In this document: in pieces, positions 34,628 to 38,572 of the stretch
Layout: each line of letters begins with the position of its first letter
Numbering within the stretch: position 1 is the first letter of the stretch
Sequence record: PZ583739.1
Source: a phage
Length of the DNA: 64,000 nucleotides
Strand: one strand, 5' to 3'
Made by a program: the position numbers and the translations under genes
The notes under the pieces: model-generated
Databases searched by the model: none
What the model was told of the DNA's origin: nothing
The model's input: only the letters and a program-made list of their open reading frames with translations

Positions 34628-34903
34628 TTATAGACGTTTAAAATTAAAGCAGTACTCTGAAAATAAACCTGCAAAATTACGTTCAACCCAGACCCGTTGT
34701 TTTGGACTGGTAATCGTTGACAAATAGTATGCTTGTTGCAGGCTTATTCCGTTTTTATTAGGGCACTCTTTGTTGAACGAGTGATAGGTACTTGCAACGA
34801 TTTCGACTTCGCGCTCATACCTTTCCTGGTCCTGTTGCATAGGAACAAAAACCAAAACCAGGAATATCAAAATAGAGATATACGTCCAAACCTTGTATAC
34901 CAT
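34628..34903 (-). CDS. Hypothetical membrane-anchored protein, 91 aa
   Basis: N-terminal hydrophobic helix; between tk and rI. Confidence 0.4.
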   Translation of the reverse strand: MVYKVWTYISILIFLVLVFVPMQQDQERYEREVEIVASTYHSFNKECPNKNGISLQQAYYLSTITSPKQRVWVERNFAGLFSEYCFNFKRL

Positions 34904-34910
34904 GTGAACC

Positions 34911-35483
34911 TCAGCTTGTTAATTCGAGCCAATGTTTTCTGCACAAAGATACGTACGATTCATTCCCACCGACCAATACTTGCTCGCCGTCCTTTACAGC
35001 AGCACCGTCGATTACTCGAGCGGTCATGGTTGCTTTCCGGCCGCAATGACAGACGCCCTTTAATTCAACCAGTTTATCCGAAATAGCCAGAAGTCTGGCC
35101 GAACCGGGAAATAATTGACCCCGAAAATCTGTTCTTAGCCCGTAACACATAACGGGGATATTGTAATTATCAACCACTTGAGCTAACTGGTCAATTTGCT
35201 CTGGTAACAAAAATTGAGCTTCATCGACCAGGACACAATGGATATCCTTTTGAGACTCGGCCCATTTATAGAATTCAAACAGGTTCATGTCGGCCGTTAC
35301 CAGGTTTGCTTCCTGGCTAATACCGATGCGTGATTTAATTTCGCCTTCCGAGTCCCGATTATCAATAACAGGTTTTAGCAAAAGCACACTCATTCCACGC
35401 TCTTTATAGGAATAAGCTGCAGTCAGCAATGAAGCTGTTTTGCCTGCATTCATTGCTGCGTAATGATAAATTAAACTCGCCAT
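34911..35483 (-). CDS. tk: Thymidine kinase
   Basis: 190 aa; P-loop MNAGKT, ...VDEAQF..., C-terminal zinc-binding CHCGRKA...C. Confidence 0.95.
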   Translation of the reverse strand: MASLIYHYAAMNAGKTASLLTAAYSYKERGMSVLLLKPVIDNRDSEGEIKSRIGISQEANLVTADMNLFEFYKWAESQKDIHCVLVDEAQFLLPEQIDQLAQVVDNYNIPVMCYGLRTDFRGQLFPGSARLLAISDKLVELKGVCHCGRKATMTARVIDGAAVKDGEQVLVGGNESYVSLCRKHWLELTS

Positions 35484-35492
35484 ATCACCTTC

Positions 35493-35678
35493 TTAAAGCG
35501 TATTCACATAAGCTATTAATTCGTTTTCTTTCGCATCAAATCGATTGGCAAATTCTTCCTGATGGTCGGCATCTATCGGGCCATATTCATCATAAAAAGC
35601 ATTTGCTTCCGTATGCTCATCCAAAAGCTCATGGATAAGCTCAAATAATCTACTTTTCTGACTAATGCTTAAACTCAT
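35493..35678 (-). CDS. Hypothetical acidic protein, 61 aa
   Basis: Small ORF upstream of tk. Confidence 0.35.
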   Translation of the reverse strand: MSLSISQKSRLFELIHELLDEHTEANAFYDEYGPIDADHQEEFANRFDAKENELIAYVNTL

Positions 35679-35881
35679 TTCGGTTCCCCATATCGCACAA
35701 ATTTAGGATGTTCGCAATAACCAGAATGAAAACCTTCACCCTTATGATTAGAACATCCTTTATTAGAACAGTACCACCAGTAATCATATTCGCAATTCAT
35801 TTCATCATTGCATAAAGCTGCGATTACTGGCCATTCACATTTTTCACATTTGGCCGTTTTAAGAATTCGGGCTTGGCTCAT
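35675..35881 (-). CDS. Hypothetical Cys-rich protein, 68 aa
   Basis: CEKCEW...CNDEMNCEYDYWWYCSNKGC (zinc-binding-like). Confidence 0.4.
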   Translation of the reverse strand: MSQARILKTAKCEKCEWPVIAALCNDEMNCEYDYWWYCSNKGCSNHKGEGFHSGYCEHPKFVRYGEPK

Positions 35882-36332
35882 AATCCACCACTATTAAATC
35901 AATATCAGGAGTAAACATGTCGATTAATTTAGAAACCTTATCCCAATCGCCGCCAGCAATACCACAACCAATACGAGGAATATAAATTACCGGTTTAAAC
36001 AAAAGGGTTTCTGCCTGTAGATTTAATTCTATCATACAATTTACTAAAGCGCCATAATCAAGATTAGGGCCCGGTTCATATTGGGTGTACAAATTATAGC
36101 ACATACCAAACCCAGTAGGTTTATGTTTAAAAACAATAGACATATCACCGAGTTTTCCTCTGTAACCATAGTCGGTTGAGGTTTTATCTATTTCTAAAAC
36201 TTTTGGATAAGCCTTCGCCAACTGTCCAGCTACGCCAGAACCCATTGTGTGAAAGCAGTTGCAACCATGTGCAATAATATTGCCTTGAAGAAAGAGGGCG
36301 ACGATATCGCCCTTAATATACTGGGTAATCAT
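35859..36332 (-). CDS. Macro-domain protein (predicted ADP-ribose binding/hydrolase)
   Basis: 157 aa; GDIVALFLQGNIIAHGCNCFHTMGSGVAGQL resembles the macro-domain N-terminal core; Gly-rich loop GCGIAGGDW later. Confidence 0.6.
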   Translation of the reverse strand: MITQYIKGDIVALFLQGNIIAHGCNCFHTMGSGVAGQLAKAYPKVLEIDKTSTDYGYRGKLGDMSIVFKHKPTGFGMCYNLYTQYEPGPNLDYGALVNCMIELNLQAETLLFKPVIYIPRIGCGIAGGDWDKVSKLIDMFTPDIDLIVVDYEPSPNS

Positions 36333-36688
36333 TTAGAGTTCAATCCTCTATTATATGAATCCACTAACCTGTCAACCATACTGGTGCAGGCCGCCTTATA
36401 TTTTGCACTTGACAGAATGCAATCCATTTCAAATAGTTTCTTTTCATATTTGTTGGATAATACATTCTTTTTCAAAAGCGTATGTTCAACATCATTTTGG
36501 CCATCTTTATAGGCTGCGGTGAGCTTGGCACTGAACCGGATTACACAATCCACATTGCTTGATGCGCAATAATCTTTAGCCGTCCTCGTTGCATATTCTA
36601 CGATGCTGTTGTTGTCGTCGCTCTGTACTGAAGCTATTCCTCCCATGCTGAATACTAACCCTATGGCTAAAGTGATAACTCTTACCAT
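36329..36688 (-). CDS. Secreted hypothetical protein, 119 aa
   Basis: N-terminal signal peptide MVRVITLAIGLVFSMGGIASVQS. Confidence 0.45.
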   Translation of the reverse strand: MVRVITLAIGLVFSMGGIASVQSDDNNSIVEYATRTAKDYCASSNVDCVIRFSAKLTAAYKDGQNDVEHTLLKKNVLSNKYEKKLFEMDCILSSAKYKAACTSMVDRLVDSYNRGLNSK

Positions 36689-36690
36689 TT

Positions 36691-37233
36691 TTAATCCACC
36701 GTTTTTAATAGGCCTCGTGATTTTAAGTAGTTAGCTTTTTCTAGGACCTGTGAAGCATACGTATTACCAGCTTTCACATTCCATCCTGCGTTATATGATG
36801 ATAGTGTTTTTCTTATATCCCCCTTATGAATATTCAACCAGTATGAAAGCTCAATATAAGCCCAGCGCGCACTGTTCTCTCTCTTGCTTATCATCTTGAT
36901 TATTTCTTTATCTGTCATTGTCCACCCAACCTGTTTCACGCGTTCGCGCACGGTTGGAAGATAATTTTGGAATATACCATATGCATGATGCTTATCTTTA
37001 TTTAATCCAGTATTAACCCCAGCAGAACTTTCCTGCCAGGTTAAACCAGCCATGATATATCCCAAACCATTACGTTGGTGTGGATTTTCTTTGTACTTGC
37101 CATTTTTCTGGAACTGCTCTCCAAACGCATAAGCATATTGGAGGTTCCCCATTTGTTCATTACTGAAAGTAGGCTCTACGCTATGGGCAGACATACTAAC
37201 TGTCAATAGTAAGGTGGCGATTACTTTTTTCAT
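36691..37233 (-). CDS. Secreted lytic-transglycosylase-like protein (SLT fold), 180 aa
   Basis: Signal peptide MKKVIATLLLTVSMSAHS; GLTWQESS...AYGIFQ matches the family-1 SLT E-S...G-hydrophobic-x-Q pattern. Confidence 0.5.
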   Translation of the reverse strand: MKKVIATLLLTVSMSAHSVEPTFSNEQMGNLQYAYAFGEQFQKNGKYKENPHQRNGLGYIMAGLTWQESSAGVNTGLNKDKHHAYGIFQNYLPTVRERVKQVGWTMTDKEIIKMISKRENSARWAYIELSYWLNIHKGDIRKTLSSYNAGWNVKAGNTYASQVLEKANYLKSRGLLKTVD

Positions 37234-37243
37234 GAATTCCCCA

Positions 37244-37702
37244 TTAGATATAAATCACTTTTGTGCTAATTTTTCCTTCCAGACGATTAGAGTTAACAAA
37301 CGCCATACGACAACACATGGTCGGAGACTTCCCAGGAAGAGCTGGGTTAACTGTCATTCCTAACCATAGGTTCTTGTCTGTGATTTCCAGACGAAGTGGA
37401 CGGTAGTTCACATTCGGGTCAATTTGTGCTTCAACTTCCGGGAGCGGTTTCATCTCCAGGAATTCAACGATTTCTTTTACATGTGGTGTGATTTTTCCAA
37501 ACAAGTCAAAAACATATTGTTCATCAATTTCACGTTGGATTGCACGGTCCAACAGGTGCGGACTGTACTTAATGAAGAATGCCTCAAGGCCTGCTTCTTT
37601 ACAAGCCTTGTTGATAGCATTATTAATTTTGAGGAACTCCGTTTCAAAAATGCGACGAAGTTTATTGCGGCGAATGTAAACACTTGAATCGATAGTAGTC
37701 AT
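37244..37702 (-). CDS. regB: RegB endoribonuclease
   Basis: Trimmed to ATG at 37702 with RBS GGAG; MTTIDSSVYIRRNKLRRIFETEF...YSPHLLDRAIQREIDEQYVFDLF...CRMAFVNSNRL, collinear with T4 RegB (152 aa). Confidence 0.9.
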   Translation of the reverse strand: MTTIDSSVYIRRNKLRRIFETEFLKINNAINKACKEAGLEAFFIKYSPHLLDRAIQREIDEQYVFDLFGKITPHVKEIVEFLEMKPLPEVEAQIDPNVNYRPLRLEITDKNLWLGMTVNPALPGKSPTMCCRMAFVNSNRLEGKISTKVIYI

Positions 37703-37729
37703 GATTATCTCCTTTTGTTTGATGGGATA

Positions 37730-37758
37730 ATCATAACTCATTTCAACCTGCTTGTACA
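37730..37758 (-). promoter_or_regulatory. T4-type early promoter driving regB
   Basis: Minus strand: GTGTACA, 17 nt, TATGAT, then TATCCC. Confidence 0.5.
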
Positions 37759-38338
<580 letters not shown>

Positions 38339-38342
<4 letters not shown>

Positions 38343-38572
38343 TTCACTTCCTCGCCAGTTGCGATATCATATTCTACCAAACGAAGGCCTTCAGTCCAAC
38401 CTTGCACGGAGATATAGGTAGTCGGGTAAATCATTTCTTTACCATTCCACCGACCGCCATCCCAGACTTCCAGAAAGTCTTGTTCACCTGGCCCATTAAA
38501 CCATTCAACAAATCTTTTCAGAGCTTCATCAGAGCCTTCAATTGTCAATTTAGACATATTTTTTCCAGTCAC
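38339..38572 (-). CDS. Hypothetical protein, 77 aa
   Basis: Small ORF. Confidence 0.35.

Follow-up and report, generated by a model that had tools for sequence, protein, structure and literature searches.

A stand-alone macrodomain with a predicted Gln-type active site, Tk.4, in a T4-like phage: a putative counterpart of the T4 anti-DarT factor AdfM

Introduction

What would a small macrodomain protein do for a T4-like phage? The question is raised by a gene in sequence record PZ583739.1, of which a stretch of 64,000 nucleotides was analysed (the window). A preliminary description of this DNA had placed a macro-domain protein in the tk-regB interval and offered two roles for it: tuning the phage's own ADP-ribosylation, or reversing a mark imposed by the host. 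The window comes from a T4-like phage; in this region Shigella phage SP18, of the genus Gaprivervirus, and its relatives are around 97% identical to it. The matching gene is annotated tk.4 in both SP18 and T4, an identity that had gone unrecognised in the preliminary description.

'Tk.4; contains A1pp phosphatase motif' is a note of long standing in the RefSeq record of T4, and 'macro domain-containing protein' or 'phosphatase' is the label in many phage records. In November 2025 the HIDEN-SEQ preprint described a T4 transposon library screened on a host expressing DarTG2, in which tk.4 was the single significant transposon match (bioRxiv 10.1101/2025.11.20.689424). A clean T4 tk.4 knockout was DarTG2-sensitive, and the gene was renamed adfM, for anti-DarT factor, macrodomain; on plain K-12 it is dispensable (bioRxiv 10.1101/2025.11.20.689424). 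The preprint, which is not peer reviewed, also finds T4 Tk.4 structurally similar to M. tuberculosis DarG and states of the removal of ADP-ribose from DNA by AdfM only that it 'seems likely' (bioRxiv 10.1101/2025.11.20.689424). T4 30.3/AdfN is a NADAR enzyme directed against the guanine-modifying DarTG1 (AdfN paper). Our literature search found no other work on Tk.4 beyond the preprint and no biochemical assay of Tk.4. Thus the T4 annotation had already identified the domain, and the 2025 preprint the function.

Results

The gene and its neighbourhood

The gene is an ATG-to-stop open reading frame encoding 157 amino acids on the minus strand; the strand had been absent from the preliminary description. 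The peptide quoted there, GDIVALFLQGNIIAHGCNCFHTMGSGVAGQL, was located at residues 8-38 of the 157-aa protein (36219-36311), and the placement in the tk-regB interval also holds, the gene being flanked by tk (34911-35483) and regB (37244-37759). Read along the minus strand, the order is regB, vs.1, vs, tk.4, a gene for a 68-aa zinc-binding protein, a gene for a 61-aa DUF7438 protein and tk. The features of tk.4 are as follows.

35859..36332, minus strand: tk.4 / adfM coding region, 157 aa; one macro domain and no second domain
36329..36332, minus strand: ATGA overlap of the vs stop (TGA) and the tk.4 start (ATG), from the ORF coordinates; junction sequence TAGAGGATTGAACTCTAAATGATTAC
36228..36269, minus strand: H22-A35 (HGCNCFHTMGSGVA), first ADP-ribose-binding loop, from invariant columns and hmmalign
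36081..36095, minus strand: N80-Q84 (NLYTQ), end of strand E74-84, from the profile-to-PDB alignment and hmmalign
35943..35978, minus strand: P119-W130 (PRIGCGIAGGDW), second Gly-rich diphosphate-binding loop, from alignments and hmmalign
35859..35881, minus strand: 3' end of tk.4, overlapping the next gene (68-aa phage zinc-binding protein) by 23 nt, from the ORF coordinates

The ATGA overlap, together with a GAGGA Shine-Dalgarno-like motif whose end lies 11 nt upstream of the tk.4 ATG, suggests that tk.4 is co-expressed with vs, the two genes being co-transcribed and their translation coupled. A consensus scan of 34800-38400 for promoters and terminators gave 11 promoter-like sites where 9.9 were expected, which is chance level. 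Within tk.4 itself, codons 7-13 (36295-36313, minus strand) hold a hairpin with a perfect stem of 8 bp, AGGGCGAT-ATC-GTCGCCCT, and a T-rich run comes after it. It was flagged as terminator-like; the region has five such sites against 2.6 +/- 1.7 expected, and the hairpin may be due to chance.

The gene tk.3, which lies directly downstream of tk.4 in SP18 (L001:2479-2691) and T4, is absent from the window, a difference of around 209 bp. As a result, tk.4 overlaps its neighbour and the last residues of the protein differ: it ends in ...DYEPSPNS, compared with ...DYESTLPASV in P0001 (159 aa), the closest database cluster at 91% identity. The overlapped gene (35675-35881, minus strand) encodes a protein of 68 aa, rich in Cys, that matches 'Phage zinc binding domain' (PF23895) with 102 bits, and the 61-aa DUF7438 protein (35493-35678, minus strand) is encoded between tk.4 and tk. 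The program-made start of the regB ORF (37244-37759, minus strand) is a GTG, giving 171 aa. An ATG further inside is probably the real start, since the match to Pfam RegB sets in at residue 23 and RegB has 153 aa in T4 and pSs-1.

Fold and class

The protein matches the Pfam Macro family (PF01661) with 32.1 bits, above the gathering threshold of 22, at E=1.3e-7 and over positions 2-117 of the 118 in the model. It also matches PHROG 335 (E=8.7e-69), and tblastn gave matches to it in 2750 phage records. On these matches the ORF is judged to be a genuine gene, and a chance ORF is ruled out. An AlphaFold2 model built with 51 homologs (pLDDT 94.9, pTM 0.89) has the three-layer alpha/beta/alpha macro fold. 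The macro-domain reading of the preliminary description is thus borne out by the Pfam score and by the predicted structure, the latter a check on the fold that had been set beforehand. Both of the Gly-rich diphosphate-binding loops, whose absence had likewise been named in advance as refuting the reading, were also found, M30-G31-S32-G33 and G122-C-G124-I-A-G127-G128. The positions G31-x-G33 and G122-x-G124-x-x-G127-G128 are invariant or nearly so across 52 phage and metagenome and 80 bacterial sequences.

Sequence searches of the PDB with Tk.4 found BT1257, Poa1p, SCO6735, DarG and TARG1. Structurally, the protein is nearer to ALC1-like members than to the MacroD, viral, PARG or macroH2A types. 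Taken together, the Pfam, PHROG and PDB matches, the AlphaFold2 model and the Gly-rich loops place Tk.4 in the TARG1/DarG/Poa1p ('ALC1-like') class of macrodomains.

A Gln-type active site

Sixteen positions are invariant in the alignment of 52 homologs, among them H22, N25, N80, Y82, Q84, G122, G124 and W130; in the first loop the invariant residues include H22, G23, N25, C26, G33 and A35. Q84 is kept without exception, in all 52 homologs from phages and metagenomes and in all 80 from bacteria. For comparison with characterised enzymes, SCO6735, BT1257, TARG1 and the two DarG macrodomains, with sequences taken from printed PDB alignments, were aligned to the family HMM with hmmalign. The full SCO6735 sequence came from a BT1257 query of the PDB; a query with the C-terminal fragment gave the loop-2 alignment only.

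In this register Q84 of Tk.4 aligns with Q85 of SCO6735, K84 of TARG1 and K80 of T. aquaticus DarG. N25 corresponds to N27 of SCO6735 and N22 of DarG, G122 and G124 to G126 and G128 of SCO6735, and A126 to the D125 position of TARG1. Our confidence in the register relies on the aligned residue numbers being those published as structurally equivalent. A seven-sequence MAFFT alignment, which set Y82 opposite the catalytic Lys with the central strand two residues off, was rejected, as the HMM alignment gives the published SCO6735, TARG1 and DarG numbers together and the N-x-x-T-[K/Q] motif agrees with it. As read from the alignment, the active site of the Tk.4 family is of the Gln type (N25 and Q84), without the catalytic Lys of DarG and TARG1.

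SCO6735 is instructive about what such a site can do. It cleaves thymidine-linked ADP-ribose on DNA and shields cells from DarT, and its proposed mechanism is assisted by water or substrate (SCO6735 paper). Its Q85A and Q85E variants abolish activity and N27S nearly does so (SCO6735 paper); in PhiKZ gp104, N23A lowers activity (PMC13309987). SCO6735 is inactive on guanosine-linked and 2'-OH RNA ADP-ribose. It is also inactive on 5'-phosphate-linked ADP-ribose according to the results section of the paper describing these substrates, which is contradicted by the discussion of the same paper. Tk.4 does not conserve K34 and K89, the DNA-positioning lysines of SCO6735: it has S32 in place of K34, and K89 falls in the loop after Q84, where Tk.4 has no conserved basic residue. 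The basic residues conserved in the Tk.4 family are K60 (100%) and K50 (82%). DNA binding by Tk.4 must therefore differ.

Orthology with T4 Tk.4

With T4 Tk.4 the window protein shares 57% identity over 153 aa (E=4e-69), and the window, SP18, T4, pSs-1 and Bas38 have the gene order regB, vs.1, vs, tk.4, ..., tk in common. By similarity and gene order, we assign the window gene as the syntenic ortholog of T4 tk.4 (adfM). The two proteins are alike in length (155 aa in T4), in consisting of a single macro domain, in the position of their genes between vs and tk, and in sharing all 16 family-invariant residues, N25 and Q84 included. They differ in loop 2, which reads IGAGIGKGNW in T4 and IGCGIAGGDW in the window protein; the latter belongs to another allele class. 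The full-length identity and the synteny support the suggestion that the protein reverses a host-imposed mark, which fits the genetics of the T4 allele on DarTG2 and is a finding already known (bioRxiv 10.1101/2025.11.20.689424).

Comparison with known macrodomains

Tk.4 resembles SCO6735 of Streptomyces coelicolor (PDB 5E3B) and Bacteroides BT1257 (2FG1/2AFC), which, like Tk.4, are of the Gln type, stand alone and have no DarT partner. In addition to the pairs given above, H22 of Tk.4 corresponds to H24 of SCO6735. The loop PRIGCG[IL]AGGxW of both proteins is nearly identical to that of the window protein (loop-2 counterparts PRIGCGLAGGTW in SCO6735 and PRIGCGLAGGKW in BT1257), although overall identity of BT1257 to Tk.4 is only around 27-29%. 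The longer post-Gln loop of SCO6735 is, like K34 and K89, not conserved in Tk.4, and both SCO6735 and BT1257 are cellular whereas Tk.4 is phage-encoded.

In DarG2 (T. aquaticus, 5M31/5M3E; M. tuberculosis, 5M3I) the place of Q84 is taken by the catalytic K80. DarG2 also has a C-terminal DarT-binding domain and an adjacent darT, and Tk.4 has neither; no darT lies beside tk.4 in the window, where the neighbours are vs and the zinc-binding protein gene. The NCBIfam DarG model (NF048014) scored 30.2 bits against a cut-off of 250, and the PADLOC DarG model was matched by the 157-aa protein at positions 4-146 of 329 only, leaving the C-terminal domain unmatched. Tk.4 falls outside DarG on four counts: score, C-terminal domain, catalytic Lys and darT linkage. 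When plasmids were searched by tblastn for relatives annotated as DarG, 44 weak matches came back, none of which bears that annotation.

Human TARG1/OARD1 and yeast Poa1p are of similar size and share the class with Tk.4. The catalytic dyad of TARG1, K84/D125, is Q84/A126 in Tk.4. Poa1p, characterised as an ADP-ribose-1''-phosphate phosphatase, has the HxCNC motif in common with Tk.4. The model for O-acetyl-ADP-ribose deacetylases of the YmdB type (NCBIfam NF001661) scored 12.8 bits against a cut-off of 291. A Thoeris paper was considered as a source of a rival function for the family and rejected, since the macrodomains it mentions are in the host protein ThsA only.

PhiKZ gp104, also named 'AdfM' (Cell Rep 2026, PMC13309987), is like Tk.4 a phage-encoded stand-alone macrodomain acting against DarTG2, its N23 corresponding to N25. 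It strips DarT2-installed ADP-ribose in vitro and is imported into the phage nucleus (PMC13309987). It differs in being Lys-type (FPTK78) and near DarG (E=9e-25 to M. tuberculosis DarG), with a weak similarity of 33 bits to the Tk.4 profile. PhiKZ gp104 appears to be an independent recruitment of another macrodomain subtype under the same name. We note that 'AdfM' now covers two non-orthologous phage macrodomains, the Lys-type, DarG-like PhiKZ gp104 and the Gln-type, SCO6735-like T4 Tk.4.

Relatives in bacteria and other replicons

A scan with one genome per species gave 80 bacterial loci at 32-43% identity. H22, N25, N80, Y82, Q84, G122, G124 and W130 are kept in every one of them. Q84 lay outside the search pattern, and its conservation in bacteria is thus independent evidence. 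In 78 of the 80 the ORF is shorter than 250 aa. No DarT2 homolog was found within 4 kb of any of the 80 by single-sequence tblastn, a search by which very divergent DarTs could be missed, and no recurrent toxin-like neighbour family was seen around them. These stand-alone relatives argue that the Tk.4 family is a widespread stand-alone Gln-type macrodomain and not a detached DarG.

Four or five of the 80 'bacterial' loci, which are MAG contigs and possibly phage-derived, carry nicotinamide phosphoribosyltransferase and ribose-phosphate pyrophosphokinase genes less than 2 kb from the Gln-type macrodomain. These NAD-type neighbours were confirmed with Pfam (L034:2453-3937 and L075:3321-4232, both plus strand; also L007, L028 and L081). 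The pair resembles phage NAD+-reconstitution modules, and Vibrio phage VF16 likewise has a 'phosphatase' next to a ribose-phosphate pyrophosphokinase. More distant Tk.4-like matches (around 30-35% identity) are found on plasmids of around 235 kb from Bacillus thuringiensis, under the annotation 'SLOG family protein'; the distant plasmid matches are H71-H78, H82 and H93, on Bacillus and Cytobacillus plasmids. A Microbacterium phage match (H105) stands under an 'ADP-ribosyltransferase' annotation. The matches so labelled may be fusions or mis-annotations.

Exchange of tk.4 alleles

The idea that Tk.4 evolves faster than its neighbours was rejected: compared with T4 it is 57% identical, and its neighbours are 45-71% identical. 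The segments compared were those of pSs-1 (L083:3454-3955), Bas38 (L084), T4 (L002:4923-5390) and the window (35859-36332). In the Tequatrovirus phages pSs-1 and Bas38 the flanks are 98-100% identical to T4 (vs 100%, vs.1 99%, regB 99%, tk 99%). For their Tk.4 the identity is 58% with the T4 protein and 92-94% with the window/SP18 (Gaprivervirus) allele. At the nucleotide level they match the window at 86% in the tk.4 segment and at 66-70% in the flanks. This combination of T4-like flanks with a window-type tk.4 indicates that tk.4 is exchanged between genera as a single-gene cassette. In the phage collection the window-type allele (at least 90% identical) is present in 310 records, the T4 type in 224 and a third type, 80-90% identical to that of T4, in 159.

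Discussion

We propose, with a probability of roughly 75%, that Tk.4 of the window is an AdfM-type orphan antitoxin which hydrolyses DarT2-installed thymidine ADP-ribose on phage DNA. The fold, class, residues and orthology are established here; that any Tk.4 allele is enzymatically active, and that the window allele shares its target with that of T4, we infer. The gene would be expressed early in infection, together with vs. The host toxin DarT2 would place ADP-ribose on thymidine of single-stranded phage DNA and so block replication. The Tk.4 macrodomain would then bind the DNA-attached ADP-ribose and hydrolyse the N-glycosidic bond, so that ADP-ribose is released and the DNA can be replicated again. 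It would do so as an orphan antitoxin lacking the C-terminal DarT-binding domain of DarG. With a Gln-type site like those of SCO6735 and BT1257, catalysis would rely on the Gln positioning the distal ribose, with assistance from water or substrate, and on no nucleophilic or general-base lysine.

Hydrolysis need not be the whole mechanism, as catalytically dead SCO6735 can inhibit DarT by binding: its Q85A variant inhibits DarT in vitro more than DarG K80A or TARG1 K84A. ICP1 AdfB, moreover, counters DarTG purely through interaction with DarT, and the divergent, swapped tk.4 alleles form a pattern that would suit a protein fitting variable toxin surfaces. It could be argued from this that Tk.4 neutralises DarT2 mainly by binding and occluding the toxin, and that hydrolysis plays a secondary part or none. 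However, the residues that bind ADP-ribose or occupy the catalytic position do not vary from phages through to distant bacteria with no DarT nearby, which points to selection on the ligand or enzymatic site and not on a toxin interface. Tk.4 also lacks the very domain with which DarG binds DarT, as the partial PADLOC match illustrates. We consider such a mechanism unlikely. That Tk.4 is a metabolite enzyme, either a Poa1p-like ADP-ribose-1''-phosphate phosphatase or an O-acetyl-ADP-ribose deacetylase, with the DarTG2 phenotype a side activity, is very unlikely. The labels 'phosphatase' and 'deacetylase' that would favour it are homology transfers and not tests, and the deacetylase model scores far below its threshold. 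The sole reported phenotype of tk.4 is DarTG2-specific, the gene being dispensable on plain K-12 (bioRxiv 10.1101/2025.11.20.689424), and the closest biochemically characterised Gln-type enzyme, SCO6735, works on DNA.

Two further readings keep ADP-ribosylation as the target but change its source. Alt, ModA and ModB transferases are encoded by T-even phages, and a paired writer and eraser in one phage would be a tidy arrangement. Tk.4 might on this reasoning reverse or tune the marks that these enzymes place on host proteins or RNA, the first of the two roles in the preliminary description. The Alt and Mod marks are arginine-linked, however, and we know of no TARG1-class macrodomain that cleaves arginine-linked ADP-ribose. 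The Tk.4 family also spans T5-like, Felix-like, Pseudomonas, Campylobacter and Bacillus phages as well as bacteria, a spread that may count against a link with Alt and Mod. We found no data connecting Tk.4 with Alt or Mod substrates, and in the transposon screen tk.4 was flagged on DarTG2 only (bioRxiv 10.1101/2025.11.20.689424). This role thus finds no support, and we regard it as extremely improbable. The remaining reading holds that the main natural target is another ADP-ribosylating defence of the host, for instance a toxin that modifies RNA or protein, and that DarT2 is one of several substrates. The authors of the AdfN paper have suggested that phage ADP-ribose erasers may counter ADP-ribosylating defences, acting on DNA or RNA, that still await discovery, and two or three divergent tk.4 alleles are in circulation. 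The narrow activity of SCO6735, which fails on guanosine-linked, 2'-OH RNA and (in the results section) 5'-phosphate-linked ADP-ribose, speaks against it, as does the lack of any reported phenotype for Tk.4 against another ADP-ribosylating defence. We judge it highly unlikely.

A more speculative and, in our view, doubtful extension of the DarT2-antitoxin proposal is that the swapped alleles differ in specificity, and that the T-even and PhiKZ AdfM proteins are independent recruitments using different chemistry on the same lesion. If true, the alleles could fit different DarT2 variants or further ADP-ribosyl marks, and the window-type allele would not be functionally interchangeable with that of T4. 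Separately, the T-even (Gln-type) and PhiKZ (Lys-type) AdfM proteins would act on one DNA lesion by different chemistry.

Given the Gln-type active site, neither 'phosphatase' nor 'DarG' is a suitable label for Tk.4. Beyond what was already known, the points that remain are this active site, the use of the name AdfM for two catalytic subtypes and the apparently horizontally swapped allele in this phage. The T-even phages have an anti-DNA-ADP-ribosylation toolkit in which AdfN (NADAR) is set against DarTG1 (guanine) and the AdfM macrodomain against DarTG2 (thymine). Around 310 sequenced phages, including this one, carry the window-type allele, which is 57% identical to that of T4, the sole allele assayed on DarTG2. 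Whether or not the window-type allele protects equally matters for phage therapy and for the prediction of host range.
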